Source: Escherichia coli
GTDB taxonomy: Bacteria; Pseudomonadota; Gammaproteobacteria; Enterobacterales; Enterobacteriaceae
Assembly: GCF_041248615.1 (NCBI RefSeq)
Contig: NZ_CP158426.1
Reading direction: 5' to 3' (one strand)
DNA length: 64,000 nucleotides
Below the pieces are notes generated by a model, which was given only the letters and a program-made list of their open reading frames with translations, had not been told where the DNA came from and made no database searches. Below, one piece after another: positions 7,428 through 64,000 of the stretch; position 1 is the stretch's first letter, and each line of letters opens with the position of its first letter. The position numbers and the translations under genes were made by a program.

Positions 7428-8375
7428 ATGCGTGTGTTACTGGCACCGATGGAGGGAGTGCTTGACTCTCTGGTGCGTGAATTGCTGACCGAAGTTAACG
7501 ACTACGATCTGTGCATCACCGAGTTTGTCCGCGTGGTGGATCAACTGCTGCCGTTAAAAGTCTTTCATCGCATTTGCCCTGAGCTACAAAACGCCAGCCG
7601 GACACCATCTGGTACGCTGGTGCGCGTGCAGTTGTTAGGTCAGTTCCCACAATGGCTGGCAGAGAACGCCGCCCGTGCGGTGGAGTTAGGTTCCTGGGGC
7701 GTGGATCTCAATTGCGGCTGCCCGTCGAAAACGGTCAACGGTAGCGGTGGTGGGGCGACGTTACTCAAAGATCCTGAACTCATCTACCAGGGTGCAAAAG
7801 CGATGCGTGAAGCTGTACCGGCGCATTTGCCCGTCAGCGTGAAAGTGCGTCTGGGCTGGGACAGCGGTGAGAAGAAATTTGAAATCGCCGATGCGGTTCA
7901 ACAGGCTGGTGCTACGGAGCTGGTGGTGCATGGACGGACAAAAGAGCAGGGTTACCGCGCGGAGCATATTGACTGGCAGGCGATTGGCGAGATTCGCCAG
8001 CGGCTGAATATTCCGGTGATTGCCAACGGTGAAATCTGGGACTGGCAGAGTGCGCAACAATGTATGGCGATCAGCGGCTGCGACGCAGTGATGATTGGTC
8101 GCGGGGCGCTCAATATTCCCAACCTGAGCCGGGTGGTAAAATATAACGAACCGCGAATGCCGTGGCCGGAGGTGGTTGCTTTGCTGCAAAAATATACCCG
8201 TCTGGAAAAGCAGGGCGATACCGGGTTATATCACGTTGCGCGGATTAAACAGTGGTTGAGTTATTTGCGTAAAGAATACGATGAAGCAACGGAATTATTT
8301 CAGCATGTTCGGGTGTTGAATAATTCCCCTGATATTGCAAGGGCTATTCAGGCAATTGATATCGAGAAACTCTAA
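7428..8375 (+). CDS. dusC: tRNA-dihydrouridine(16) synthase C
   Basis: ORF 7380-8375; start set at [13 protein letters not shown] giving 315 aa; Dus TIM-barrel motifs; matches recalled DusC. Confidence 0.9.
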
Positions 8376-8416
8376 AAAACCATAGTGATGTTTTTTGACA
8401 ATGTGTTAGCTCTTTA

Positions 8417-8677
8417 TCAATAGGCCGCACGGTTGTTTGGTGGCGTCAAAATTGCCGAGGCGTTCCCTGAAGGCCGGGGCAGCCCACATGGATGTGGGCT
8501 GAGGGCGCGTTTTACAGGGATGTTACCTCGCGCCCGACCCGGTAGCCGTAAGGGATAAGCCGAGGGCACCGCGCAGCGGCGATTTTGTTCGCCAGAGCCC
8601 GGGGGTGCAGGGGGCGGCGGCGATTGGCCGCCCCCTGCGCGCTCCTTGCGCCAGTGATTATATGAAGCAATACACAT
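8417..8677. repeat. GC-rich palindromic intergenic element (not classic REP consensus)
   Basis: about 260 bp of very high GC with several perfect hairpins (CAGCCCACAT/ATGTGGGCTG; GCAGGGGGCGGC/GCCGCCCCCTGC); the 86-aa ORF on the minus strand is low-complexity Pro/Gly/Arg-rich and is probably not coding. Confidence 0.45.
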
Positions 8678-8747
8678 GACAGGAGCGCAACAGGATGAGA
8701 GACTGAAATATTCTCGTTATTTTCGGACCTGATGACATTAATTAATT

Positions 8748-8831
8748 TTAAAATATCATCTTAAATACGCCAGTCACCACCAGTAGCCCAATCAGGAAAA
8801 TAATCAATACAGCCCAGAGTATAATTTTCAT
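8748..8831 (-). CDS. yohP: 27-aa small membrane protein
   Basis: manual translation of the minus strand gives MKIILWAVLIIFLIGLLVVTGVFKMIF, identical to recalled YohP; below the ORF-track size cutoff. Confidence 0.85.
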   Translation of the reverse strand: MKIILWAVLIIFLIGLLVVTGVFKMIF

Positions 8832-9054
8832 TGGCGTTCCTTTATTTGTGAGTGCTGAATAAGTATAGGAAAAAACGAAGCCCTTTGCCGTTATCCATAA
8901 ACGATTAAGATAAATCGGAAGATATCATTCACTTAGTGTATATTTTTCTGGATATGTCGTTTTATTGCTACTGATGTATTGCCACGCGAAACTAAAAAAT
9001 ATATCGCAACACACGGTAATCTCCGCGCACCTTTTCTTACCTGATTATTCCCCC

Positions 9055-10491
9055 ATGAATCGTGATTCCTTTTATCCCGCCATCGCCTGTTTTCCGCTGT
9101 TACTGATGCTGGCCGGGTGTGCGCCTATGCATGAAACCCGCCAGGCGTTAAGCCAGCAAACGCCCGCTGCACAAGTTGACACCGCATTACCCACGGCGCT
9201 GAAAAATGGTTGGCCAGACAGCCAATGGTGGCTGGAGTATCACGATAATCAACTCACTTCCTTAATTAACAATGCACTACAGAACGCACCGGATATGCAG
9301 GTGGCTGAACAGCGCATTCAGCTAGCTGAAGCCCAGGCGAAGGCAATTGCTACTCAGGATGGTCCGCAGATCGACTTTTCTGCGGATATGGAGCGGCAAA
9401 AAATGTCGGCAGAAGGCTTAATGGGGCCGTTTGCTCTGAACGATCCGGCCGCAGGTACGACCGGTCCGTGGTACACCAACGGTACTTTTGGCTTAACGGT
9501 GGGCTGGCATCTCGATATCTGGGGAAAGAATCGGGCGGAGGTAACTGCTCGCCTGGGTACGGTTAAAGCACGAGCGGCGGAACGCGAGCAAACCCGCCAA
9601 TTGCTGGCTGGCAGCGTAGCCCGCCTGTACTGGGAGTGGCAGACCCAGGCGGCGTTAAACACGGTCTTGCAGCAAATCGAAAAAGAGCAGAACACTATTA
9701 TCGCGACCGATCGCCAGCTATATCAGAACGGGATTACTTCTTCAGTTGAAGGTGTGGAAACCGATATTAATGCCAGCAAAACCCGGCAGCAGCTCGACGA
9801 TGTCGCGGGGAAAATGAAAATTATTGAGGCACGGTTAAGCGCACTTACAAATCACCAGACAAAGGCATTGAAGCTTAATCCGGTCGCGTTGCCGAAAGTG
9901 GCAAGCCAGCTTCCTGATGAACTGGGGTACTCCTTACTGGCGCGGCGGGCAGATTTGCAGGCGGCGCACTGGTACGTTGAGTCATCGTTAAGCACTATTG
10001 ATGCGGCAAAAGCGGCATTTTATCCTGACATCAACCTGATGGCCTTCCTGCAACAGGATGCGTTGCACTTAAGCGATCTGTTCCGTCATTCCGCGCAGCA
10101 AATGGGCGTTACGGCAGGCCTGACGCTACCCATTTTCGATAGTGGTCGTCTTAACGCCAACCTCGATATCGCAAAAGCCGAAAGCAACTTGTCTATCGCC
10201 AGCTACAACAAAGCGGTGGTTGAAGCGGTGAATGACGTGGCGCGGGCAGCCAGTCAGGTTCAGACACTGGCGGAGAAAAACCAGCATCAGGCGCAAATTG
10301 AGCGCGATGCCTTGCGTGTAGTAGGTCTTGCGCAGGCGCGCTTTAACGCGGGCATCATTGCGGGTTCCCGCGTCAGCGAAGCCAGAATCCCCGCGCTGCG
10401 TGAGCGGGCCAATGGCCTGTTATTGCAAGGGCAGTGGCTGGATGCCTCCATTCAACTCACTGGTGCGTTGGGCGGGGGTTACAAACGTTGA
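9055..10491 (+). CDS. mdtQ: outer-membrane efflux lipoprotein (OMF/NodT family)
   Basis: ORF 8965-10491; start set at MNRDSF..., giving a lipobox LLMLAGC and 478 aa; OMF coiled-coil / beta-barrel architecture; intact single ORF. Confidence 0.8.
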   Translation: MNRDSFYPAIACFPLLLMLAGCAPMHETRQALSQQTPAAQVDTALPTALKNGWPDSQWWLEYHDNQLTSLINNALQNAPDMQVAEQRIQLAEAQAKAIATQDGPQIDFSADMERQKMSAEGLMGPFALNDPAAGTTGPWYTNGTFGLTVGWHLDIWGKNRAEVTARLGTVKARAAEREQTRQLLAGSVARLYWEWQTQAALNTVLQQIEKEQNTIIATDRQLYQNGITSSVEGVETDINASKTRQQLDDVAGKMKIIEARLSALTNHQTKALKLNPVALPKVASQLPDELGYSLLARRADLQAAHWYVESSLSTIDAAKAAFYPDINLMAFLQQDALHLSDLFRHSAQQMGVTAGLTLPIFDSGRLNANLDIAKAESNLSIASYNKAVVEAVNDVARAASQVQTLAEKNQHQAQIERDALRVVGLAQARFNAGIIAGSRVSEARIPALRERANGLLLQGQWLDASIQLTGALGGGYKR

Positions 10492-10543
10492 TGATATGCG
10501 CCTTCTATACTTAACGTTTATTCAGCGTTATGTGGAGAACTCG

Positions 10544-11305
10544 ATGGCACAGGTCGCGATTATTACCGCCTCCGATTCGGGGATCGGCAAAGAGTGCGCG
10601 TTATTACTGGCGCAGCAGGGGTTTGATATTGGTATTACCTGGCACTCTGATGAAGAAGGGGCAAAAGATACCGCGCGTGAGGTGGTTAGCCACGGCGTAC
10701 GTGCGGAGATCGTGCAGCTGGATCTCGGCAATCTACCAGAAGGGGCACTGGCGCTGGAGAAACTCATTCAACGGCTGGGGCGTATTGATGTGCTGGTGAA
10801 TAATGCGGGCGCAATGACCAAAGCGCCGTTTCTTGATATGGCTTTCGATGAGTGGCGCAAGATTTTTACCGTTGATGTCGATGGTGCATTTTTATGCTCG
10901 CAAATTGCTGCCCGCCAGATGGTGAAACAAGGGCAGGGTGGTCGCATCATCAACATTACGTCGGTGCATGAACATACGCCGTTGCCGGATGCCAGCGCTT
11001 ACACAGCCGCTAAACATGCGCTCGGTGGGTTAACTAAAGCGATGGCGCTGGAGCTGGTCAGGCATAAGATTTTGGTGAACGCAGTCGCACCTGGGGCGAT
11101 CGCCACGCCAATGAATGGCATGGATGACGGGGATGTGAAGCCCGATGCGGAGCCTTCGATTCCCTTGCGGCGTTTTGGCGCAACGCATGAGATTGCCAGC
11201 CTGGTGGTGTGGCTTTGTTCGGAGGGCGCAAATTACACCACTGGGCAGTCGTTGATAGTGGATGGCGGCTTTATGCTGGCGAATCCGCAGTTCAACCCAG
11301 AATAG
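10544..11305 (+). CDS. yohF: short-chain dehydrogenase/reductase
   Basis: start set at MAQVAIITASDSGIGKE (Rossmann TGxxxGxG), 253 aa; catalytic YxxxK (YTAAK). Confidence 0.85.
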   Translation: MAQVAIITASDSGIGKECALLLAQQGFDIGITWHSDEEGAKDTAREVVSHGVRAEIVQLDLGNLPEGALALEKLIQRLGRIDVLVNNAGAMTKAPFLDMAFDEWRKIFTVDVDGAFLCSQIAARQMVKQGQGGRIINITSVHEHTPLPDASAYTAAKHALGGLTKAMALELVRHKILVNAVAPGAIATPMNGMDDGDVKPDAEPSIPLRRFGATHEIASLVVWLCSEGANYTTGQSLIVDGGFMLANPQFNPE

Positions 11306-13903: not shown

Positions 13904-15617
13904 ACTCCACTTCCTGCCAGTTTTTCCGCTTACTGGTTTTACCGATCCCCGGATTCATGCTGTTGGTCGGATCGTTCTCGCGATAAAACTTCTGCAACGT
14001 CTCCGGTGCTTTATACAAATGACCGACGTTATGCTCGGCAGGGTACTGCGCGCCGCGCTGCTGTAGCAGTTCCAGCATCTGTTCTTTCAACGCATGCACA
14101 TCCACGCCTTTTTTAACGATGTAATCCTGATGGAAGACATAGCACATAAAATGGCCGTAATAGAGCTTGTGCACCAGCTGGCTGTCGATGTCCGGCGGTA
14201 AATGCTCATACCACTCGGTGTCGTTACGCCGCAGAGCGATATCCAGTGCCAGAATGTCTTCGACTTCATCGGAATGCACCGCCTGATAACGAATTGCTGC
14301 GCCCGCAGCGGCGAAACGGTGTAAAAACGCTTTGCTACCTTCCTCCGGCGTACAGACAAAGAAATCGCCTTCGGCCTGTTTGAAATAATCCACCAGCCAC
14401 GATTTGGCTTCACCGACGCCATCGCCCGCCATTTTTAACAGCAGATGATGTTCATATTTATCGCGCCAGTTTTTCATGCGCGGCGGTAAATGGCTGGGGA
14501 ACAGGTGACCGAATTTTTGCATCGCACGGTCGGTAAAATGCGGACGGAAGAATTTCACTTTCTCCAGCATCGCATCGGTGCGCCCCTTGAGATTAAAGAA
14601 GAACGGCATCTTGTCGGTGCCTAACTTATCAATCATCAGGAAGGTGTCTTTGCCGTATTTTTCCGCAATATCGTAGATATCCCGGTGCATATATTCCCCG
14701 GCAACCGGCAGATTTTCGAAATTAGCCAGAATATGACGGCGGATTTCTGTCAGTACTTCCGGCTGGTTGGTGCCGATATAAAACACCTGCTGATTTTTTT
14801 CCGCTTCGAAGGTATCAAGACGTACCGCAAAGACGGCCAGCTTCCCGGCGCAACCAGAAGATTCAAATAACCGATCCGGATCGGCGTTATAACGTGCGGG
14901 CGTGTCGGCTTCAATATCACGAACGCGGTGGACATAGTCATAATCGTGGGCGTGACGGCCATCGTGACGCACATCGTCATCTTTGATGCGATCGTCATCC
15001 AGCTTGCTAAGGATCTGCTCCGGCGTTTCGCCCAGATCAATCCCGAGATGGTTAACCAGCGTCAGCTTGCCATCTTCATTTATACGCGCGAATAACGACA
15101 TTTCGGTATACGCCGGGCCACGTTGCACCAGCGAGCCGCCGGAGTTGTTACAAATACCGCCGATGACCGATGCGCCTATACACGATGATCCAATCACCGA
15201 GTGCGGTTCGCGTCCCAGCGGTTTGAGGGCTTTTTCCAGCGAATAAAGCGTTGTGCCCGGATAGGCCAGCACCTGTTCGCCCTTGCCAAGAACGTGCAGC
15301 TTGTCGAGACGCAGGGTGCTGATGATCACGATATCGCGATCATAGTCGTTACCGTTTGGCGTCGATCCTTCGGTCAGGCCTGTATTGGCAGCCTGCATGA
15401 GAATAATTTTGTCGGCGGTGACGCAGGCTTTCAGCACCCGCCACAATTCCAGTAGTGAGCCAGGGAAAACGACAGCCAGCGCGTCGCCCTGACCAGAACG
15501 GAAGCCCTTGCGATAGCGGGCCGTTTTTGCGGGATCGGTGAGCAGGTGTGAATGACCGACCAGACGGGCAAGTTCATTCAAAAAGGCTTTATTATCAGTT
15601 GTTGTCATGGAAGACAT
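13902..15617 (-). CDS. dld: FAD-dependent D-lactate dehydrogenase (membrane-associated)
   Basis: start set at MSSMTTTDNKAFLNELARLV, giving 571 aa; matches recalled Dld. Confidence 0.9.
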   Translation of the reverse strand: MSSMTTTDNKAFLNELARLVGHSHLLTDPAKTARYRKGFRSGQGDALAVVFPGSLLELWRVLKACVTADKIILMQAANTGLTEGSTPNGNDYDRDIVIISTLRLDKLHVLGKGEQVLAYPGTTLYSLEKALKPLGREPHSVIGSSCIGASVIGGICNNSGGSLVQRGPAYTEMSLFARINEDGKLTLVNHLGIDLGETPEQILSKLDDDRIKDDDVRHDGRHAHDYDYVHRVRDIEADTPARYNADPDRLFESSGCAGKLAVFAVRLDTFEAEKNQQVFYIGTNQPEVLTEIRRHILANFENLPVAGEYMHRDIYDIAEKYGKDTFLMIDKLGTDKMPFFFNLKGRTDAMLEKVKFFRPHFTDRAMQKFGHLFPSHLPPRMKNWRDKYEHHLLLKMAGDGVGEAKSWLVDYFKQAEGDFFVCTPEEGSKAFLHRFAAAGAAIRYQAVHSDEVEDILALDIALRRNDTEWYEHLPPDIDSQLVHKLYYGHFMCYVFHQDYIVKKGVDVHALKEQMLELLQQRGAQYPAEHNVGHLYKAPETLQKFYRENDPTNSMNPGIGKTSKRKNWQEVE

Positions 15618-25543: not shown

Positions 25544-26014
25544 ATGCTAAGTAACGATATTCTGCGCAGCGTGCGCTACATTTTGAAAGCCAATAATAAT
25601 GACCTGGTGCGTATTCTGGCGCTGGGTAATGTCGAAGCCACCGCGGAACAGATCGCCGTCTGGCTACGTAAAGAAGACGAAGAGGGTTTTCAGCGTTGTC
25701 CGGACATTGTTTTGTCTTCCTTCCTCAATGGCCTGATTTATGAAAAACGCGGCAAGGATGAGTCTGCTCCGGCACTGGAGCCGGAACGTCGCATTAATAA
25801 CAACATCGTGCTGAAAAAATTACGCATCGCGTTTTCGCTGAAGACCGATGACATTCTGGCGATCCTCACCGAACAGCAGTTCCGCGTTTCGATGCCGGAA
25901 ATTACGGCGATGATGCGTGCACCGGATCATAAAAACTTCCGCGAATGCGGCGATCAATTTTTACGTTATTTTCTGCGTGGACTGGCAGCGCGCCAGCATG
26001 TGAAGAAAAGCTAA
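25544..26014 (+). CDS. yehS: DUF1456-family protein
   Basis: start set at MLSNDILRSVRYILK giving 156 aa; internal duplication visible (LRSVRYIL... / LRIAFSL...). Confidence 0.8.
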   Translation: MLSNDILRSVRYILKANNNDLVRILALGNVEATAEQIAVWLRKEDEEGFQRCPDIVLSSFLNGLIYEKRGKDESAPALEPERRINNNIVLKKLRIAFSLKTDDILAILTEQQFRVSMPEITAMMRAPDHKNFRECGDQFLRYFLRGLAARQHVKKS

Positions 26015-52519: not shown

Positions 52520-52600
52520 AACCAAACGACTCGGGGTGCCCTTCTGCGTGAAGGCTGAGAAATACCCGTATCACCTGATCTGGATAATGCCAGCGTAGGT
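52520..52600 (+). ncRNA. TPP riboswitch aptamer (thi-box) of the thiM leader
   Basis: AACCAAACGACTCGGGGTGCCCTTCTGCGTGAAGGCTGAGAAATACCCGTATCACCTGATCTGGATAATGCCAGCGTAGG matches the recalled E. coli thiM TPP aptamer; similarity ends at about 52600. Confidence 0.85.
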
Positions 52601-52654
52601 TGCCAACATTCTGATTAGTATTCATGTGGTTACATTTCTTTTTGTCCGTGTGTA

Positions 52655-53986
52655 ATGCACCTAATGTACAAAAAGAGCGTAAACATGAGGTACAAAACTC
52701 TTCCATACACGTTTCAAAGAAACGGTAATTACTATCTACAGATTCGGCTTTCGAATGGTCGGATGTATAAAAAATCACTTCTCACTGACAGCTATCGTGA
52801 AGTCTCTGCTTTGATGATTGGTGTTGCTCCGTACATTCCTTTTGTTAAATCATTAGCCATCACAATCCCGATGTTTGATGCCTTTGTTTCAAACCTGATT
52901 ATGTCAAAACTTAGGGCTGTAAAAGTTCCGCTGCTATCACATCAGTCGGTAATTACCCCTGCTACATTCGAGGAACCAGCGACACAAGCCGAACCGCAAA
53001 ACATGCTAACTCTTTCTGATGCGTGGGCTATGTATAAAGCGGAAAAGGGTAAAACATGGACAAAGTCGATCTCAAGGGCGAATGAGCGTTACATGGAAGT
53101 CTTGATGGTTGTCTTGGGAGAGACAACTGACGTAGTTGCGATTTCTAAGCAGGACATCAAGCAGGTGATGGAAGTTGTTGAGAATTTGCCTAAGCGTGTT
53201 GTCCAACCGTATCGCTCAATGAACATCCAGCAACTGATTGAATGTGATGATGTATCACCGAATGAGTTAGTAGGAGTGGAAGCCATTCATAAGCATCTCA
53301 AAATCTACAAATCGCTTTTCAAGACTTTTCTAACAGAAAACAAAGATATTTTGATTAAATCCCCAACTGATGGGGTAGTAGCAGCACCATCTAAAGCAAG
53401 GTTTGGAGCATACAGTTCGGCGGAGATGAAGAAGTTTGTAGAGTGGGCACTTAAGCAGCCAGATGGCTGGCAGAAGTGGATAACATTGTTGTTGGCATAC
53501 ACAGGAGCCAGAAGGGGAGAAATTGCCAAACTGGAAAAATCACAAATAAAATATGATGAGGATAGCCATCGGTATTATTTCCTGATTGCAGAAGGAGGGC
53601 AGGGGAAAACCGAAAATGCTACCCGACAAGTAGTGATACACCCTAAGTTGATCGAATGGGGTTTCATGGAATACGTTGATCGCCAGTGGAAAGAACGGAT
53701 TTTTTCAGAAGTGGCTGGTACAAACATGACGAAGATCGGTAAAGAATTTGCTGATGTGCGTGACCAGCTTGACATTCCGTACTTAGACGATTTTGGACAG
53801 CGGAGGCTTTTGCATAGCATTCGTCATTCTGTTTGCTCTACTGCGATGGCTGGATGGGTAAAGAACATCTTGCATCTGCAACAAACAGTAGGCCATGAGA
53901 AAAGTGGAGGGATCACTAAACGCTACTTACATACGTTCCCACTATCATCAATTTGTTATGTTATTGATGGGATTAGTTGGGTCTGA
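52655..53986 (+). CDS. tyrosine-type site-specific integrase (island integrase)
   Basis: C-terminal catalytic box LHSIRHS...GH...Y (R-H-R-Y tyrosine recombinase motif); true start may be the Met at 52685. Confidence 0.75.
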   Translation: MHLMYKKSVNMRYKTLPYTFQRNGNYYLQIRLSNGRMYKKSLLTDSYREVSALMIGVAPYIPFVKSLAITIPMFDAFVSNLIMSKLRAVKVPLLSHQSVITPATFEEPATQAEPQNMLTLSDAWAMYKAEKGKTWTKSISRANERYMEVLMVVLGETTDVVAISKQDIKQVMEVVENLPKRVVQPYRSMNIQQLIECDDVSPNELVGVEAIHKHLKIYKSLFKTFLTENKDILIKSPTDGVVAAPSKARFGAYSSAEMKKFVEWALKQPDGWQKWITLLLAYTGARRGEIAKLEKSQIKYDEDSHRYYFLIAEGGQGKTENATRQVVIHPKLIEWGFMEYVDRQWKERIFSEVAGTNMTKIGKEFADVRDQLDIPYLDDFGQRRLLHSIRHSVCSTAMAGWVKNILHLQQTVGHEKSGGITKRYLHTFPLSSICYVIDGISWV

Positions 53987-54203: not shown

Positions 54204-55106
54204 GTGGATATGTTACTACCAATACGAGTTCATAAACGATTTCTAACTTTATTTAAGACTTTGCAAATTGACGATTGCCCACCGCAATCAACTTTAAATA
54301 TTCATGTACTTAATATCGAAAGCAATGAATTTATATACTGTAAATTAGTTGAAGAATTACGTGACATAATAATTACTTATGTACATTCGAATAGAAGGCT
54401 TGAGGAGTTTAAGGAAAGTTATCCTTCGTATAGCCCTAAACCTTTTTTCGAAGCAATACAAAAATTTCGCAATTATACGTCAAACGAAGGTGAGTTAGGT
54501 GAACTGCTTTTATACGCTTTTCTTGAAACAGGACTAAATGCTCCGAAATTACTTTCCAAAATGCAATTGAAAACAGATTCTAATGATTACATTAAGGGTT
54601 CTGATGGTGTACATCTGTTAGAATTAGATGATGGTTATCAATTAATATTTGGAGAATCAAAGCTCTATGCCGATCTTTTAGAAGGTGCTCGAGAAGCGTT
54701 TGATTCTATTTTAGATTTTAAAAGTAATGGAATGGCATTTGAAAGAGGGCTGATAGATACACACGTTATAAATGAAATGGTTTCAGAAGAAGGTTATGAG
54801 AAAATAAAATCAATTCTTCTTCCTTCTTCTGGCGATGATGGGCCAGATCTTGATTTATCCTTTGGTATATTTCTTGGTTTTGAATTGAAAATAGATAGCT
54901 CACAGTTATCATTGAAAAACAAAGAGTTTAGAGATTGGGTTAATGAGTCCGTGAAACAACATGCTACTCGCGTGGTCAGTACGATACGAAGGAAAATTAT
55001 TAATCATAAATTATATGGTCACGAATTCCACATATATATAGTTCCTTTTACCGATATTGATGTTACACGAAAAAAATTAATTCATGAAATGCTAACAATT
55101 AAGTGA
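54204..55106 (+). CDS. PD-(D/E)xK-like putative nuclease, HamA-like (Hachiman-type effector candidate)
   Basis: 300 aa; motif ELDDGYQLIFGESK (D...ExK); stop overlaps the start of the downstream helicase gene by 4 nt; low GC, island context. Confidence 0.5.
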   Translation: MDMLLPIRVHKRFLTLFKTLQIDDCPPQSTLNIHVLNIESNEFIYCKLVEELRDIIITYVHSNRRLEEFKESYPSYSPKPFFEAIQKFRNYTSNEGELGELLLYAFLETGLNAPKLLSKMQLKTDSNDYIKGSDGVHLLELDDGYQLIFGESKLYADLLEGAREAFDSILDFKSNGMAFERGLIDTHVINEMVSEEGYEKIKSILLPSSGDDGPDLDLSFGIFLGFELKIDSSQLSLKNKEFRDWVNESVKQHATRVVSTIRRKIINHKLYGHEFHIYIVPFTDIDVTRKKLIHEMLTIK

Positions 55107-57691
55107 ACACTATGAATGAATTAAATTCAAGTAAAAACATTCATTTGGCAGCTCGTCTTGCAGATGATGCTTTTGAAAGTGCTTATTTTAAAGAAATCAA
55201 TAAGTTTATAAGTGGTTTATACAATTACAGTTTATTTAACTGCGATTCAGATGTTAGTCTCTCCGAGAGTGATAACAATAAAATAGCACACGCTTTGCGT
55301 TTTGCAGATATATTTTCACATTCTTCAAAAGAAAATCATAGATCATGTGCATTTGAAATTATAAGTAGAATAGCCTTATTAAAAAAACATGATCCTTATT
55401 TTAAATTTATAGGTACTGCTGTTATTAATCGGCTTGGGGTTTATGCAGCAGAAAAACTCATATCAAAAGGGGTAAAATTACCCTTAGATAGAGAAGTTGA
55501 TTCTATTATTAAAAAATCAGTTCAGAAAACAGATGAAGATGGAGTATATTTCACTGATAAACAACATGAGTTATACAAACTTTTAAAAAGTAGCAAAACA
55601 ATTAGTTTTGCTGGTCCCACTTCGATGGGAAAGTCATTTGTTATTAATGCATACATTAAGGAAATAACTCTTAAAAAAGAGCTTAAAAATATAGCTTTAA
55701 TTGTTCCTACACGGGCTTTAATAAGCCAAAATGCACTTAAGTTAAAAATTGATATTGCATTGTATAAGAATGAAAGCCCTTATAAAGTTGTTACGACATC
55801 CTACATTATTAATGGTGATGAAAGTAAAAATAAAGGCTATATTTTTATTCTCACCCCAGAAAGGCTGGTTAGTCTCATAAGCACTATTCCTGGACTAATG
55901 ATTGATTATGTTTTTGTAGATGAAGCTCAAAAGTTAACAACAAAAAATGATTCGAGGAGTCTTGTTACTTATTCAGCTATAGAGCAAACAATTAGTAAAA
56001 ATCCTGAGGCAAGATTATTCTTCTCTTCACCTAATTTATCTAATCCTGAAATATTTAATATTTTGTTTGATAGAAAAGACGCTTCGGTATATAGAAATAC
56101 AGAAGGTGCAACTACTCAGAATATGTATTTTATTGATCTTTTAAATAGCAGCTTTAGCTATGTTAATACCGAGAAAAGGACGCTTGAAAAAATAGATGAG
56201 ATCTCTAATACTTACACGAATACAAATGATGTTATCTATAAATTAAATAATGGTAAAAGTAAAATAATTTATTGTGGGGGGATAGAAAGCACGCTTGAGA
56301 GAACACGTAGCTTTATCAATTATCTCAAAATTAATAAGAAAAAAAGAAAGCATTTAAATTTAGAAATATCTTCTGAGATAAGAAACTTTGTTCATGATAA
56401 CTATGAACTTGCAGAAGCCATCAACTATGGTGTTGCTTTCCACTTTGGAAACTTGCCTCAATCGATTCGAGATTTAATTGAGCATCATTTCAAAATAGGA
56501 AATATTGACTATCTATTCTGTACATCAACCCTACTTGAGGGAGTCAATTTACCTGCAAGATCCGTATTTATTCTTACGCATAAAAAAGGCCCCAGTCCAT
56601 TAGAGTCGGTTGATTTTTGGAATCTGGCTGGGAGAGCTGGGCGATTATCTATGGAATTGTCAGGGGATATTTTTTGTATTAGGGATGATAATAAGCTTTG
56701 GAATAAAAAAGCTGTTGATAATATCCTTCTGTCTGACAAAAATAACATTTCATTAAAGCCAAGCTTCTATATTGAAGACGAAAAAAGATTGAACGATTTA
56801 CACCATATAATTACGACTGGTAAAACAGGGAATATTAAAAATGCTGAGTTCCTTAGAACTTTAGGAGATATGATAAGAATAGACACTCTGAGGGATTCTA
56901 AAGAACTTCCTCTTATTAGTTATTTCCAAAGCAGTGGAAAATCAGAAATTTTGTTAAGTGCAGAAAAAAGCACTGAAAATATTACCATGCCAATGAATAT
57001 CCTTTTGGCAAATAGTCATATTGCGATTGATTCGCAGTATCATGCTTTTAAAAAAATAAAAAGCCTTACAGTTAAGGAACTGAAATTATCATGGCAGCCT
57101 ACATACGAAGAAATTAAAGAAAAATTGAATTTGATATTCGATATTTACCAAGTTGAAAAGTTTGCAACAGGTAGAGAACGTCTTTATTTAAATTCAATTC
57201 CATATTATGCAGTATTACTGTTTCAATGGATTCGTGGAAATAGTCTACAGGAAATTATCTCGGGGGCAATTGCTTATAGAAAGAACAAAAGTATATATAT
57301 TAAAAATACACCTGTTCTTTTTGACAGCGAAAACCCAGCTCATTTAACTGCATTAGTTAATGAAACTATAAAAGACATTGAGTTGCGTGTAGGTTACCAG
57401 TTACAAAATTATTTTTCACATTACTGTCAGCTTCTGAATTATGTGTTACAAGGAAATCCAGGGGCAAACTGGTCTCAGTTCATTGAGTTTGGCTCTAATG
57501 AGCCAATAGTATGGCACCTACAAATGATGGGCTTTTCAAGGGATAGTGCAGTTTTTCTCAAGAAGAATTTTTCAAAACATCTTAAACTTGATAATGAAAT
57601 GAATAAACTCATCATAATGGATAAGGAACTGATCAAGCGTTCTTTCAAAAAAGATGGACTACATTACTTAGAAATCCAATCGTTATTATAA
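55103..57691 (+). CDS. SF2 helicase, HamB-like (Hachiman-type helicase candidate)
   Basis: 862 aa; Walker A AGPTSMGKS, Walker B FVDEAQK, SSP motif, motif V TSTLLEGVNLP and motif VI AGRAGR. Confidence 0.55.
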   Translation: MNTMNELNSSKNIHLAARLADDAFESAYFKEINKFISGLYNYSLFNCDSDVSLSESDNNKIAHALRFADIFSHSSKENHRSCAFEIISRIALLKKHDPYFKFIGTAVINRLGVYAAEKLISKGVKLPLDREVDSIIKKSVQKTDEDGVYFTDKQHELYKLLKSSKTISFAGPTSMGKSFVINAYIKEITLKKELKNIALIVPTRALISQNALKLKIDIALYKNESPYKVVTTSYIINGDESKNKGYIFILTPERLVSLISTIPGLMIDYVFVDEAQKLTTKNDSRSLVTYSAIEQTISKNPEARLFFSSPNLSNPEIFNILFDRKDASVYRNTEGATTQNMYFIDLLNSSFSYVNTEKRTLEKIDEISNTYTNTNDVIYKLNNGKSKIIYCGGIESTLERTRSFINYLKINKKKRKHLNLEISSEIRNFVHDNYELAEAINYGVAFHFGNLPQSIRDLIEHHFKIGNIDYLFCTSTLLEGVNLPARSVFILTHKKGPSPLESVDFWNLAGRAGRLSMELSGDIFCIRDDNKLWNKKAVDNILLSDKNNISLKPSFYIEDEKRLNDLHHIITTGKTGNIKNAEFLRTLGDMIRIDTLRDSKELPLISYFQSSGKSEILLSAEKSTENITMPMNILLANSHIAIDSQYHAFKKIKSLTVKELKLSWQPTYEEIKEKLNLIFDIYQVEKFATGRERLYLNSIPYYAVLLFQWIRGNSLQEIISGAIAYRKNKSIYIKNTPVLFDSENPAHLTALVNETIKDIELRVGYQLQNYFSHYCQLLNYVLQGNPGANWSQFIEFGSNEPIVWHLQMMGFSRDSAVFLKKNFSKHLKLDNEMNKLIIMDKELIKRSFKKDGLHYLEIQSLL

Positions 57692-57999: not shown

Positions 58000-58575
58000 T
58001 CAGCGTTTGATGCCGCTAATACTGGCAAGCATTTCTTTCTTCACACGAAAAACTGTAGCCCTGCCGCAATCACATAACTTTGCTATCTCGTCTGGTGTAT
58101 TCTTCCCGGCCTGTAACATATCGATAATCTTGTTATGTAGCTCTTTGTTCTTTTGCTTGCCCTTGTACTTCTTAGCCTCTTTAGCAAGAGCAATCCCCTC
58201 ATTGCGACGAGATGCGATCATACCCCGCTCAAATTCTGCAGCGGCTCCCATCATGGTTAGGATAAGGCGTGATTGTGGGGAATTATCAAAACTCATAGAG
58301 TTTGCAAGGAATTGAACAGTGATTCCACGAGCCACGAGGTTATCAATCATTTCCAGCAAATCGCGGGTATTACGTGCAAGGCGATCAATCGAGTGAGTAA
58401 CGAGCGTGTCACCTTCGCGGAGGTGTGAAAGCAGGTTCAACAATTCAGGTCTTTCGCTGGTGGACTTACCTGATTCTTTCTCTGCCACAATTTTGTCACA
58501 AACAGGTTCCAGCACTGCCAACTGACGCTCAAGATTTTGATCCTTTGTTGAGACTCTCGCGTAACCAAAAATCAT
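58000..58575 (-). CDS. serine recombinase (resolvase/invertase family)
   Basis: N-terminal catalytic domain MIFGYARVSTKDQ with catalytic Ser, C-terminal HTH; 191 aa. Confidence 0.85.
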   Translation of the reverse strand: MIFGYARVSTKDQNLERQLAVLEPVCDKIVAEKESGKSTSERPELLNLLSHLREGDTLVTHSIDRLARNTRDLLEMIDNLVARGITVQFLANSMSFDNSPQSRLILTMMGAAAEFERGMIASRRNEGIALAKEAKKYKGKQKNKELHNKIIDMLQAGKNTPDEIAKLCDCGRATVFRVKKEMLASISGIKR

Positions 58576-59125: not shown

Positions 59126-59485
59126 TCATTCAGAACGATCAAGTACCATATATGCTGGCTGACACATGCTGCCCCGCTCCTGTAGCCAGTAGTAATCAAG
59201 ATCGGCAACACGCACGTCCAATCCAGAATCTACACGGTTGATCTGTAACCGTAGCCCTACAGTATCCTTGTACGATAAACCAGATTTAACATTGTATTTG
59301 TACTTAACACCGTTTTCCTGTTCAAACTGTTTAAGGAAAGGCGTCATTTGTTTCTGAATTTCTTTCAAACAAATAACCTCATTATCAATAGCAAAGGGGG
59401 GTTCTGTTTTTCCATCAGGTACAGCAGCCTGTAAATGAAAGGAAGTACTCAACAATAACAGCATTGCAACAGAAGTCTTTTTCAT
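59126..59485 (-). CDS. small secreted protein of unknown function
   Basis: 119 aa; cleavable signal peptide MKKTSVAMLLLLSTSFHLQA; 43 nt downstream of the membrane protein gene. Confidence 0.6.
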   Translation of the reverse strand: MKKTSVAMLLLLSTSFHLQAAVPDGKTEPPFAIDNEVICLKEIQKQMTPFLKQFEQENGVKYKYNVKSGLSYKDTVGLRLQINRVDSGLDVRVADLDYYWLQERGSMCQPAYMVLDRSE

Positions 59486-59528: not shown

Positions 59529-60569
59529 TTAATAACAATATTTTATATTTCCTTCGGGTTTTCTCATGCATTTAATTCCTTCAGGAATATAATCAGTTAC
59601 GGGAGCAGGTCTGGCATCAGGTCTTGAAAGACGATTGGATATAGAAGACAACAGACTGAAAACACACTCATTAAATGATTTTTGATATTTATTTTTTTCA
59701 TAAAAGTACTGCATGGTGATTTTATCTCTTTCGTATTGCAATTCTTTGCCAAGCTGAATCCTATCCATATCAATTCCATTTCTCATAGCATTAAATCTTT
59801 CGTTCAATAAATTAAATTGAGATTTATTCCATTCATTTAAAGGAAATAAAGAATTGTTAAGCCTTTGCCTACAATTAGATTGCTCGATAGCTGACATGTA
59901 TTCTTTCATACTAACGCCAATATCTAAGTATGTGAGTTGTCCAGCAGTTCTATCAACTGAGTTATTAGGGTAAGATTTAATTTCAGTAAGTATTGACTCT
60001 GTTAATACTGCATTTTCTTCTAAATCTTTGCTAATAGTTATTTGAGCTTGTTCTCTTTTATCCTTATCAAATATTGAAATGTATTTCTTTACTATATCCT
60101 GATTAGCTTTCTCGGCTGCTACTAACGCATCTTGAACCTTCTTTTCCGCCGCTTTAACTCGTTGTTCTTCTACAAATTTCGCGTAGTCATCAGTATTTGT
60201 AATGTGATTTTCACGAGCGATAGAAAACTCTTTACTATCTTTAAAACCAAGTTTTTGTGCTCTGGCTCCATCGCTTGAAGATCGGGCAGAACTTGCCACG
60301 AAAGCGAGCACAATGATCAGTACAGGAACCGTATAATTATTAACGAGTTTATAGGGTAAGAACTTCGCTTTAAGCGTACCATAACCCAAAACAGCCCAGC
60401 CTATCGCGGCAGTACTTGCCAGTAGCTGGCACAATCCAGCGACGGAAAGCATGATTACCGACCAGAAGCCTGTACCGACTGCGAAAAGATCACCAAATTT
60501 CTCCATTGACGCAAGGAATAAAAACACTCCCCAAATGCCATAAAATCCTATTTTCAAATATTTACTCAC
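59529..60569 (-). CDS. 3-TM membrane protein with large charged coiled-coil-like C-terminal domain, unknown function
   Basis: 346 aa; three N-terminal hydrophobic helices followed by a K/E/Q-rich soluble domain. Confidence 0.6.
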   Translation of the reverse strand: MSKYLKIGFYGIWGVFLFLASMEKFGDLFAVGTGFWSVIMLSVAGLCQLLASTAAIGWAVLGYGTLKAKFLPYKLVNNYTVPVLIIVLAFVASSARSSSDGARAQKLGFKDSKEFSIARENHITNTDDYAKFVEEQRVKAAEKKVQDALVAAEKANQDIVKKYISIFDKDKREQAQITISKDLEENAVLTESILTEIKSYPNNSVDRTAGQLTYLDIGVSMKEYMSAIEQSNCRQRLNNSLFPLNEWNKSQFNLLNERFNAMRNGIDMDRIQLGKELQYERDKITMQYFYEKNKYQKSFNECVFSLLSSISNRLSRPDARPAPVTDYIPEGIKCMRKPEGNIKYCY

Positions 60570-60779
60570 CGCAATTATCCTTTAATAATTTTCCAAATCG
60601 ATGGTTCGTTCTATTTGTATTATCGACAATAATTCGTTTGCCTTTAGGTAGATCCCTTAAAAAGGAATCCCCCCAAAATTTATAGATTAGCAGTTGTACC
60701 ACTCTCACTGTTTTGTCACTCCCATTATCTTCTCTCAGGTCAAAAGTACGGACTTAAAGCCGTCCGTGTTCAGGTGCTC

Positions 60780-60900
60780 AAGAGTAGCACGCATATCAAT
60801 AAATGATCGATAAAAACGATCAATTAATGGCTTATTGATCGCTATAACCTATCAATGACTATTAATTCAATACAAATCAATAGGTAAAATCGATCAAGAG
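60780..60900. repeat. AT-rich cluster of ATCAAT/ATTGAT repeats with GATC sites (iteron/origin-like or protein-binding array)
   Basis: five ATCAAT/ATTGAT copies and four GATC sites within about 120 bp, in an ORF-free region. Confidence 0.45.
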
Positions 60901-61552
60901 GATTCGTCATCCATGAAAGGGGTTATGTATCTGATTTCAATACAGGGAGTATTAGCGATACCATCACGCAAACGCTCTTAAAGCGTAGCTACGGCGTTTT
61001 GTAGGGTTTTTGGTCATTCATGTGTGTCAGTAATGAACATCGCATTCAGGGGCTTCCTGTGCGTTTTGTCCGAAACACCATCATGAAGGGGGACAGATCG
61101 GATCGGGGTCGCTTCGCTCTGGTCAGTACTGGATAGTTCTTTTCCAGTAACTGAAACCGCAGATACCCCACTAAGTACACAAAGGAATTATTTGTAGAAT
61201 AAGTAATGAAATAACAGTCAGTTATGTACTTACTGACAGAACTAAAAACGCGATTAGGTTCGCTCTGTCAGTGACCGAAGGGAACGCAACAGTAGAATCT
61301 AATCCAGCGAACAGTACACGCAAGCGGGTGCTGTTTAATTGTTTTATCTATGTAAACAATGGGATAGCTATCAAGTACTCACTGCGTGAGCACTCTCACT
61401 AACTACCCGAAACAGTTCGCTTGCTTCGCCGCTCCTACTTTCAGGTAGTTAATTCGCTTTCGCTCGTTGTGATGTCCGAAATTTATTACCTATAGTATTA
61501 TAAGGTATTATTTTCCGGACATTTATGTATTTTTATGATGGTGTTCTGGACA

Positions 61553-63028
61553 TCATTTTTTGCTTTTTTGTACTTCCTTTTCGTATTTGTTCCACATAGC
61601 CTTTTGCTCTTCGGGACTGAGTGCTGTATTACCACTGGCAAGAAACACCTTGAACGCTTCTAACTCAAGCCCTGGGTTGCGGCTTTTCCAGCGGCGAAAA
61701 CGCTTAGCGTGATTATCATCAAGAGTGAAACGCTTTTGCTTATTCTTTGAACCTTGCGGCCTGCCTCTCGACCTCTGCTCATCATCAATACCGATATCTA
61801 TATACTCAATATTATCTGTAAGAGATCTGGCTTGCCATTCATCAAAAACATAAACAGTCTGTGTTTCAGTACTGTCAAAATCCCTTGAAATTCCTCGTAG
61901 TACGAACTGGTGTAAACTTTCGTACTCCCTCGCAACATGTATCGCCTCGCCGTCAATCTCAAAGAACAATTCGCACTGTTTAGCCTCTGTTTCAGAGGGA
62001 CGCATACAAGCGAGCCAGACGCACGTGAGCAAGTGTTGGTACTGGTTAAACCCTCTGGCATCCGGGCTTATCTCTGTGCCGTTTTTGAGGCTCTGAGAAT
62101 CGCTTTTGTTCTTCGTCCAGTAGAAATCCTGTCCCTCAAGTTTTTTATCAATAAATGAGTATATTTTTTGTACTTTATCAGGGTTATTAGTCTTCCATGT
62201 CTTCGATAGTTTTTGATTTTTTGAGAAGTAATAAACCTTTAATCTGTCTTTGAGAGCTGTTTTTCGTGTCAGTAATCCTCCAAGTTCAGTACTTTCAAAG
62301 AGTTCTTTATTGCCTTTATAGATCAATGAATTTTCGAAATTAGCTCCGAGAAAGGTGATTGATACGTCTTTGTACTTACTGAGATCTTTCCATGCGGTAA
62401 TATTAAGCTGTTCCTTTTTCGCATCGGTAAAGTACTCATTATTCATGATGAACATATCATTTTCGTTAATTGCTGGTAGCTGGTTCAAAATATTCTTCAG
62501 TACTTCCCCTTGTATTTCTGGTTTTCTTTCTGCCGCAATATACATATTTTTATCATCTAATGTCAGTACATTGTGTATTAATGAATTAAGAATTGTATTT
62601 TTTATATTAGTATCACCCTCATTAATATTCTGAAAAGAGTGAAAATTAGTAACGTCGTCAATATAAATATTACAGTCAGATAACAATTCAGGAGGAATTT
62701 TGAAAAACGTTTTATCTGTTATGAGTAATGTTTTATTACTTCCAGATGAAAGAAAGTTAATAACTGAATTAATAACACTTTCATCTTTTGGTACTGTATC
62801 TGTAATTATATACTCGCAATTATTGATTTGCTTTGCTGTCTGCTTAATAAGTTCTTGAGTGTTCTGTACTAAAATATATTTTTCAGTACTGTTATTGATT
62901 ATATTGCATATAGCAGTAGTTTTACCTGAACCACAAGGGGCGGAGACATACTTAAATTTATTATAAATAGGTGTGGGATTAATCATTTGTACACGCTCCA
63001 TATTGATTAATGTAGAAAGGTCAGCCAT
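61553..63028 (-). CDS. P-loop NTPase with C-terminal AT-hook (RGRP-GSKNK) DNA-binding tail, unknown family
   Basis: 491 aa; Walker A APCGSGKTT near the N-terminus, candidate Walker B NIYIDDV; C-terminal RSRGRPQGSKNKQKR matches the AT-hook consensus. Confidence 0.6.
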   Translation of the reverse strand: MADLSTLINMERVQMINPTPIYNKFKYVSAPCGSGKTTAICNIINNSTEKYILVQNTQELIKQTAKQINNCEYIITDTVPKDESVINSVINFLSSGSNKTLLITDKTFFKIPPELLSDCNIYIDDVTNFHSFQNINEGDTNIKNTILNSLIHNVLTLDDKNMYIAAERKPEIQGEVLKNILNQLPAINENDMFIMNNEYFTDAKKEQLNITAWKDLSKYKDVSITFLGANFENSLIYKGNKELFESTELGGLLTRKTALKDRLKVYYFSKNQKLSKTWKTNNPDKVQKIYSFIDKKLEGQDFYWTKNKSDSQSLKNGTEISPDARGFNQYQHLLTCVWLACMRPSETEAKQCELFFEIDGEAIHVAREYESLHQFVLRGISRDFDSTETQTVYVFDEWQARSLTDNIEYIDIGIDDEQRSRGRPQGSKNKQKRFTLDDNHAKRFRRWKSRNPGLELEAFKVFLASGNTALSPEEQKAMWNKYEKEVQKSKK

Positions 63029-63359
63029 TCCAGTGTCTGGCCTTTCGTTGTTTTAGTTATTAGTCTTTTTGAGTTGCGACAACTGCAAGAGAATGTTTAT
63101 AAACAAGTGAAATAAGCAGTTTTACCGCCTCAAAAGCTACAGTCAGTTTCGTAATTATTTTCGAAAGCATCGTAAATTTCACTTCGCTATCTTCTATGCA
63201 AAAATTAGCAGCCTGAGGTATTTAATGATTGAGATGTGGCCTGTTGATAAGAGGGTTTGTATTGCTTGTTCTGCTCTTTGTTAATTTGTGACTTATTCCT
63301 TTCACAATGATCGGCTATGTTTGATAACTCTGTTAGGAAATCACCTATGGCTACCATAT

Positions 63360-64000
63360 TGGATTTGCCCCTATATTTCCAGACACCTGTTATCACTTAA
63401 CCCATTACTGGCCTGCTGCCGCAGATATTCCCGTGGCGAGCGATAACCCAGTGCACTATGCGGATGCCATTCGTTATAATGCTCGAACGCCTCTGCAAGG
63501 TTCTTTGCTGCCGTTAACCCGTCTGGTTTAGGCATGATACTGATGTAGTCACGCTTTATCGTTTTCACGAAGCTCTCTGCTATGCCGTTACTCTCCGGAC
63601 TCCGCACCGCCGTGTTCTTCGGTTCAAGCCCCAATATCCGGGCAAACTGCCGTGTTTCATTAGCCCGGTAGCATGAACCATTATCCGTCAGCCACTCTAC
63701 TGGAGACGCCGGAAGCTCGTTGCCGAAGCGGCGTTCCACCGCTCCCAGCATGACGTCCTGTACTGTTTCACTGTCGAAGCCGCCCGTAGTGACTGCCCAG
63801 TGCAGTGCCTCACGGTCACAGCAGTCCAGCGCGAACGTGACTCGCAGTTTTTCTCCGTTATCACAGCGGAACTCGAACCCGTCAGAGCACCATCGTTGAT
63901 TGCTTTCTTTCACGGCCACTTTGCCAGTATGTGCCCGTTTCGATGGCGGTACAGCGGTTTTTCGCTCAAGCAACAGCGCATTCTGGCGCATGATCCGGTA
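63360..64000 (-). mobile_element. IS2 (IS3 family), partial; right terminal inverted repeat at about 63360, element runs past the window end
   Basis: terminus TGGATTTGCCCCTATATTTCCAGACA matches the recalled IS2 end; encoded protein matches the recalled IS2 InsD (OrfB) C-terminus. Confidence 0.85.
63371..64000 (-). CDS. insD: IS2 transposase OrfB (InsD), 3' portion; 5' end beyond the window
   Basis: translation ...[39 protein letters not shown]...[19 protein letters not shown] matches recalled InsD (DDE integrase core). Confidence 0.85.

Follow-up and report, generated by a model that had tools for sequence, protein, structure and literature searches.

What does a helicase-like protein with an AT-hook-like tail do in an integrase-only defence island? 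The question is raised by a 64,000-nucleotide stretch of Escherichia coli DNA (RefSeq assembly GCF_041248615.1, contig NZ_CP158426.1; hereafter the window), in which an open reading frame of 491 amino acids (61553..63028, minus strand) encodes a superfamily 2 (SF2) helicase-like ATPase that ends in such a tail. The window matches the chromosome of E. coli NRZ14408 (NZ_LT599825.1) at 100%. RefSeq, through the Prokaryotic Genome Annotation Pipeline (PGAP), starts the protein at Met15 (62986), which yields 477 amino acids (WP_001590329.1), under the product name 'DEAD/DEAH box helicase family protein'. The reading that we favour, and to which we give about an even chance of being right, is that the protein serves as the replication helicase and the origin-binding protein of a small integrative island.

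The helicase domain and its family

Analysis of the protein indicated that its N-terminus is a genuine P-loop ATPase, as the first-pass annotation of this DNA had proposed. The Walker A motif APCGSGKTT (residues 30–38; 62915..62941, minus strand) has an invariant G33 and K36 in an alignment of 72 homologs that reaches down to 19% identity. The motif NIYIDDV (residues 120–126; 62651..62671, minus strand), previously called a probable Walker B, contains D124, which is invariant in the same homologs, and closes a beta strand (E120-124) in the structural model. Helicase motif VI, QFVLRGISR (residues 374–382; 61883..61909, minus strand), contributes the arginine fingers, and its Q374, R378, and R382 are likewise invariant. 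The AlphaFold2 model, calculated from the 72-sequence alignment, is confident (mean predicted local distance difference test [pLDDT] score of 91.6), and its residues 20–415 fold into a pair of RecA-like domains, the first of which bears a beta-rich insertion. Comparison of the model with known structures revealed that the closest folds are the XPD/DinG helicases, which translocate on single-stranded DNA, with sequence identities of 11–14%; CasDinG, DdmD, and Hna, all of them helicases from defence systems, are further structural neighbours. The features of an SF2 helicase are present together, namely the conserved Walker A, Walker B, and motif VI arginines and the two tandem RecA-like domains. 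The protein is, as modeled, an intact and divergent SF2 helicase-type ATPase with an XPD/DinG-like fold, and unwinding activity is predicted for it.

Scans of the protein against NCBIfam, Pfam, and PADLOC gave no family assignment, and its profiles matched PDB sequences at the level of the Walker A motif only. The protein matched phrog_2467, a family of unknown function, with E = 1e-38. The first-pass annotation had found no known helicase family for the protein, a view that has to be revised, as it can be placed as a divergent SF2 helicase of the phrog_2467 family. This family is uncharacterised and has been foreshadowed by computation only.

Most homologs are named 'type III restriction endonuclease subunit R' in RefSeq. 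The identification of the protein as a Res subunit draws on this use of the name by PGAP and on a weak Pfam ResIII match (8.1e-5), which covers residues 26–75 only and is thus limited to the Walker A region. The C-terminus consists of the AT-hook arm and a three-helix bundle rather than a nuclease. Pfam detected no nuclease domain in the protein, and no gene for a Mod methyltransferase was found in the island or in related loci. On these two absences the Res subunit was ruled out as an identification that is practically inconceivable; the RefSeq name is misleading, and the present analysis corrects it.

To place the protein among its distant relatives, we used a profile search of 1.84 billion representative proteins, which returned 880 family members. 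About 50 of the 150 best representatives are long proteins of 640–990 amino acids. Scanning of long relatives against PHROGs revealed the phrog_2467 domain in 10 of 10 and a DNA-primase domain, located N- or C-terminally, in 7 of the 10, with matches to the primase families phrog_16950 (E = 8e-22), phrog_1156 (E = 5e-20), and phrog_9765 (E = 2e-16) and to the 'replicative helicase-primase' family phrog_3228 (E = 4e-10). These primase-fused relatives are ~800–950 amino acids long. Pfam Prim-Pol was matched (4.9e-17) by one of 20 N-terminally extended relatives in a separate scan. A GRP motif after the helicase domain is kept in many of the long relatives, and their C-terminal extension gave no match in profile and Pfam scans. 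The only phage matches to the protein came from Straboviridae phages (Cronobacter S13 and LPCS28) and from the jumbo phage Atu_ph07. The study of Kazlauskas et al. 2018 (PMC5862659) predicts an SF2-like helicase family that is fused to archaeo-eukaryotic primases (AEP), has its closest homologs in T4-like phages and SPbeta, and was proposed as a new helicase family of viruses and plasmids. The phrog_2467-type family of the protein is probably the same as this predicted family (pVOG1685/9714).

The AT-hook-like tail

Residues 419–433 (61730..61774, minus strand) form a disordered AT-hook-like arm, RSRGRPQGSKNKQKR, with the conserved pattern GRPxGxxN. Comparison of 24 homologs of 54–88% identity from Escherichia, Enterobacter, Dickeya, Yersinia, Klebsiella, Pectobacterium, Morganella, Providencia, and other genera revealed that G422, R423, P424, G426, and N429 are invariant. 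Homologs lacking the tail were looked for, and GRPxGxxN was kept in 24 of 24, which upholds the HMGA-type AT-hook tail that the first-pass annotation had recognised here. The motif also extends to distant relatives. Among the 93 of the top 150 representatives with a recognisable motif VI and tail, 40 contain GRP, at a median distance of 44 residues past motif VI; elsewhere in these same proteins, GRP occurs once in 40,037 residues scanned, a background of 2.5e-5 per residue. The distant tails read 'KGGRPKKY..EEA' or 'GRP....T.AERQRRFRERR', in which a GRP arm leads into a basic helix, and the extended HMGA-like form RGRPxGSKNK is confined to the Enterobacterales clade.

In the AlphaFold2 model, the GRP arm is disordered, with a pLDDT of about 46 for residues 420–430 and values below 50 for residues 423–430. 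A model of the tail only also left the arm unstructured, with three helices after it. These helices form the C-terminal bundle (residues 438–490; 61559..61717, minus strand), in which the first helix starts with the basic stretch AKRFRRWK. The tail shares with AT-hooks a GRP core between basic residues and a disordered setting.

Two search results could be taken to mean that the RGRP tail is a functionless chance match of low complexity. The Pfam model AT_hook (PF02178) gave no match at E ≤ 10, a weak negative given the very short model, and the sole PDB match of the tail profile, the HMGA1 AT-hook 2 peptide KRPRGRPKGSKNKG (2EZD), has E = 1.2, which is not significant by itself and suggestive only. 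Against such a chance match stand the invariance of the motif in the 24 homologs and the family-wide frequency of GRP at the tail position, far above the within-protein background. A functionless tail is therefore very improbable and was ruled out by conservation and positional enrichment. The tail is a genuine conserved AT-hook-like motif, and minor-groove binding is predicted from its sequence. The earlier description of the tail as eukaryote-like holds insofar as the RGRPxGSKNK form resembles HMGA, but it is overstated, because proteins of bacteria and phages, H-NS and Lsr2 among them, have been described before as carrying minor-groove motifs with GRP or RGR (PMC10011098). Common descent with the eukaryotic AT-hook is neither needed nor established.

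Two A-runs (CAAAAAAGCAAAAAATGA) are located at the end of the gene (61553-61600), where the +1 frame runs on as ...NDVQNTIIKIHKCPENNTL (61498-61641, minus strand). The NDVQNTIIKIHKCPENNTL peptide is fused in frame to the C-terminus in the homologs P0102, P0111, and P0118-P0120. The fused peptide may represent frameshift or indel variation at the A-runs, or an extended isoform that overlaps the inverted repeat.

The noncoding DNA and the island backbone

The noncoding stretch next to the helicase gene (60570-61552) is 983 bp long, with a GC content of 40% versus 36% for the helicase gene. The first-pass annotation had described it as a 1-kb AT-rich repeat region; the length and the repeats agree with this description, but at 40% GC overall only sub-blocks are AT-rich. 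The first ~100 nucleotides past the helicase stop codon have 33% GC and include, just past the stop, an AT-rich palindrome (61472..61522) with 20-nucleotide arms, ATGTCCGGAAAATAATACCT and AGGTATTATTTTCCGGACAT, which is a candidate binding or melting site. Alignments indicated that the palindrome is retained even in the divergent elements of Providencia and Rouxiella.

The conserved noncoding DNA that starts at the stop codon, termed block A (61067..61552, ~486 nucleotides), contains hairpins and repeats and is closed by a 21-nucleotide inverted repeat (61532-61552 and 61067-61087; TGTCCAGAACACCATCAT... and ...ATGATGGTGTTTCGGACA). The sequence AGCGAA occurs six times in the first 500 nucleotides, compared with a mean of 0.23 in shuffled sequences, and three of the five exact copies of TGTCCGRAA in the window are located inside block A. 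Block A also contains two copies of GCGAAGC and one of GCGAAAGC, which we take to be unusually stable DNA mini-hairpins. In each of the 28 loci where the helicase gene is present, a conserved noncoding motif follows its stop codon at a distance of 120–170 nucleotides and with unchanged orientation; 30 loci were scored for block A, and in the other two the contig starts downstream of the helicase gene. An alignment of 24 block A sequences showed little covariation (covariation term of -0.97), and Rfam returned no RNA family at E ≤ 1 between 58500 and 64000. Further from the gene, block B (60783..60912, ~130 bp, 31.5% GC) includes overlapping inverted repeats and is also found in the Providencia loci. 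It contains four copies of GATC (shuffle mean of 0.37) and five of ATTGAT/ATCAAT (shuffle mean of 0.16).

Two other explanations of this DNA were considered. A comparison with 72,556 plasmids and 50,697 phages found no DNA similar to the noncoding stretch, so that the idea of a cos, pac, or oriT site taken over from such an element lacks support; the noncoding motif was absent from virome contigs as well. An invertible switch, built from the 21-nucleotide inverted repeats and the invertase-like recombinase of the island, was rejected, as the orientation of block A does not vary among the loci scored (30 of 30).

In E. coli strain KE55, the island has a length of approximately 11.3 kb and lies between 82-bp perfect direct repeats within the thiM thiamine pyrophosphate (TPP) riboswitch, the copies being located at 14524-14605 and 25852-25948 of locus L001. 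In the window, the left riboswitch copy, which is the left attachment repeat, is found at 52522..52617 on the plus strand (Rfam RF00059, 58 bits), and the right copy lies past the window end. The insertion duplicates 82 bp of the riboswitch, which leaves a copy at both ends, and the integrase gene follows directly behind the left copy. Annotation and open reading frames place this tyrosine integrase at 52655..53986 and the Hachiman cargo, consisting of HamA (DUF1837) and the HamB helicase, at 54204..57691 (RefSeq annotation for the latter), both on the plus strand. They are followed on the minus strand by a small serine recombinase of the resolvase/invertase type (58000..58575, 191 amino acids), which matches phrog_125 'DNA invertase' with E = 5e-58 and is conserved at the far end of the module; by a hypothetical secreted protein (59126..59485, 119 amino acids) conserved in the module; and by a hypothetical membrane protein (59529..60569, 346 amino acids) with a conserved N-terminal portion of ~130–160 amino acids and a variable C-terminus. 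The last two proteins have no match in PHROGs or PADLOC. The noncoding DNA and the helicase gene come next, and the KE55 gene order closes with a small open reading frame of 74 amino acids upstream of the helicase. In the window strain, a remnant of this frame (63205..63396, minus strand) is cut by an IS3-family element that runs from 63371 to beyond 64000, splits the frame, and encodes a transposase with a programmed frameshift. Other strains have insertions of ISVsa5, IS2, or IS3 in or near the helicase gene.

Comparison of ~30 loci, drawn from genomes and metagenomes with many Enterobacterales among them, revealed a constant order: (small open reading frame), helicase, noncoding DNA, membrane protein, secreted protein, variable cargo, and serine recombinase. 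The cargo differs from locus to locus and includes Hachiman, a Cap4-nuclease cluster, PLD, protein kinase, DUF3800, and other genes; the integrase is of the tyrosine or the large serine type and sits at either end. Because the order is constant while the cargo differs, the helicase is a fixed backbone gene of the mobile element and not part of its cargo. Among 5,426 complete E. coli genomes, 54 carry the helicase, always on the chromosome and nearly always in a single copy. No conjugation, relaxase, or packaging genes were found beside the integrase in the island.

Two related loci contain genes for S24-peptidase repressors of the CI/LexA-like type. In locus L005 (16040-17824), the repressor lies with a divergent HTH_35 gene inside a related island, and in locus L038 (161-1914) the two are directly upstream of a distant helicase homolog. 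Such neighbours suggest that some members may be inducible in the manner of the SOS response. Among virome contigs, a helicase homolog was seen in L014 (IMG/VR UViG_2921219222_000004) only, which carries the homolog at 490-1866 and, ~6 kb away (8191-11018), a head-tail joining gene and the small and large terminase subunits. This contig is ambiguous and could reflect integration in tandem with a prophage or else a copy carried by a phage.

Possible functions and known systems

We infer a replication role for the helicase from the primase fusions of its distant relatives and from synteny. In the proposed mechanism, the integrase would excise the island from the thiM riboswitch, and the C-terminal tail would hold the helicase at the cis-acting DNA beside its gene. 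An A/T tract, for example in the palindrome past the stop codon or in the GATC/ATTGAT block, would take up the GRP arm in its minor groove, while the basic helix and the bundle would contact neighbouring bases or grooves. The ATP-driven SF2 motor could then open and unwind the AT-rich DNA, so that host primase and polymerase would copy the excised circle, a step for which the relatives bring their own primase, and the small serine recombinase would resolve multimers. This reading is supported by the conservation of the tail, the primase-fused relatives, and the backbone position next to the same noncoding DNA. The origin-like features of this DNA, namely the AT-rich palindrome, the GATC cluster, and the repeated short motifs, also count for it, as does the lack of a match between the protein and any known defence family in PADLOC.

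Several points weigh against an origin-binding helicase. The protein has no primase domain, the island contains no other replication gene, and replicative helicases are not usually monomeric members of SF2. The C-terminal bundle has a fold that is not diagnostic, and no exact DnaA box was found in the noncoding DNA. Both the protein and the noncoding DNA are all but missing from the plasmids and phages searched, and the plasmid absence counts because plasmids are where one would expect a module of Rep and origin that is self-sufficient. A search for circular contigs found terminal overlaps in 0 of 12 complete metagenomic contigs. Block A is 79–92% identical across genera, even where the helicases are just 55% identical, and its two strands fold about equally well (-88 versus -85 kcal/mol). 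Because block A outconserves the protein and both strands fold equally, it could be an RNA or single-stranded DNA signal rather than a duplex origin.

According to a reading that we consider unlikely, the helicase serves horizontal transfer instead of vegetative replication, and block A is a single-stranded DNA signal, for which an origin of transfer and a site of single-strand initiation or a single-strand promoter come into question. When a helper plasmid or phage mobilises the island, the helicase, of the 5'-3' type and positioned by its AT-hook tail, would unwind or process the strand. Among the defence islands of E. coli, many have an integrase only and no known means of replication or spread (Hochhauser et al. 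2023); the island fits this class, with an integrase and no relaxase, packaging, or conjugation genes, which is consistent with a transfer function dependent on a helper. The single-stranded DNA-translocating XPD/DinG helicases as best folds agree with such a function. So does block A, dense in conserved hairpins, bracketed by its 21-nucleotide inverted repeat, and holding the two GCGAAGC copies and the GCGAAAGC copy with their presumed mini-hairpin character. The island, however, encodes no nickase, its noncoding DNA is unlike that of any plasmid or phage searched, and the primase fusions of the relatives point to replication; the sole IMG/VR contig with a homolog adjoins prophage terminase genes and is ambiguous here too. 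It is a good deal less than probable, too, that the module of helicase, structured noncoding element, membrane protein, and secreted protein acts as an anti-phage or anti-plasmid defence system, and we rate this as quite improbable. In such a system, the helicase would be the part that senses or attacks foreign DNA, with the membrane protein as effector. Such a role would suit the location of the module within defence islands beside Hachiman, Cap4-nuclease cluster, PLD, and kinase genes, the structural neighbours CasDinG, DdmD, and Hna, and the variable C-terminus of the membrane protein. Yet the module stays constant while the cargo changes, is always accompanied by the integrase and the serine recombinase, and was never found in prophage, P4, or plasmid hotspots. 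None of 5,027 PADLOC models matched, the only hit to the helicase being Cas3d in the Walker A region (E = 0.013), which is not significant, and the fusion of relatives to primases also argues against defence.

The pair that the helicase forms with the conserved noncoding DNA is a candidate for the replication or transfer functions that one family of defence islands otherwise seems to lack. A more specific proposal, which is possible but on balance doubtful, is that the AT-hook helicase and the ~480-nucleotide hairpin-rich element constitute an undescribed replication or transfer module that defines a family of small 'integrase-only' defence islands in Enterobacterales, with the helicase recognising structured single-stranded DNA or RNA rather than an iteron origin. 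Such a module would explain how islands without known mobilisation multiply or move, and the interest of the locus would be greater if the pair does drive their replication or transfer. A literature search turned up no account of the protein or of the island backbone, and none of the fixed noncoding partner or the conserved AT-hook-like tail; bacterial AT-hook-like motifs as such are known. The protein also offers a compact bacterial model for the targeting of a helicase motor to DNA by an AT-hook, for which the fission-yeast origin recognition complex (ORC), which carries AT-hooks, is a comparison.

Among known systems, XPD/Rad3 and DinG/CasDinG come closest in structure, sharing the pair of RecA-like domains, the first of them interrupted by an insertion. 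They differ from the protein in their C-terminus and genomic context and in the four-cysteine Fe-S cluster between Walker A and Walker B. Residues 39–119 of the protein contain only the cysteines C41, C71, and C119, of which only C41 is invariant, and because it lacks the Fe-S cysteine cluster the protein is not a member of the XPD/DinG family. The family predicted by Kazlauskas et al. 2018 (PMC5862659) is like that of the protein in its remote SF2-like domain, AEP primase fusions, occurrence in mobile elements, and T4-like phage homologs. The protein differs in standing alone without a primase, and the passages of the study considered here make no mention of the AT-hook tail or the island module. 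The CyRepA plasmid Rep proteins of cyanobacteria, which have been validated experimentally, unite a DEXDc helicase domain and a primase-like domain in one protein and set a precedent from experiment for a helicase domain of this type in a replication initiator. CyRepA1 and CyRepA2 resemble the protein in having a DEXDc-type helicase domain within a Rep protein, and the protein has a weak NCBIfam match to CyRepA1 (NF042913). The match scores 20.3 bits, where the curated cut-off is 200, and is confined to residues 26–75 (the Walker A region); the protein has no DUF3854 domain. CyRepA membership was rejected on the score, far under the cut-off, and on the absence of DUF3854; moreover, CyRepA proteins are encoded on plasmids, whereas the gene studied here is chromosomal and island-borne.

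Herpesvirus UL9 and phage P4 alpha each join a helicase motor to a C-terminal origin-binding domain. P4 alpha also contains a primase, its helicase belongs to SF3, and its DNA-binding domain is a winged helix. The likeness to the protein is one of logic only, a motor with C-terminal origin binding, together with the primase found in P4 alpha and in the relatives of the protein. No family membership follows from it, given the SF3 helicase and winged helix of P4 alpha, and Pfam Herpes_ori_bp (PF02399) matched neither the protein nor any of 46 long relatives. For the tail, the closest parallel is HMGA1 AT-hook 2 (2EZD), where RGRPxGSKNK corresponds to KRPRGRPKGSKNKG nearly residue by residue, with the GRP core, the basic flanks, and the disorder in common. 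Unlike HMGA1, the protein has a single copy, placed on a helicase and followed by a helical bundle, and its distant relatives retain only the GRP and the basic helix. Hin recombinase has a GRP arm ahead of a helix-turn-helix. H-NS and Lsr2 share with the protein a GRP or RGR arm beside a small helical DNA-binding domain (PMC10011098). In contrast to H-NS, Lsr2, and Hin, the arm of the protein is attached to an ATP-driven motor.

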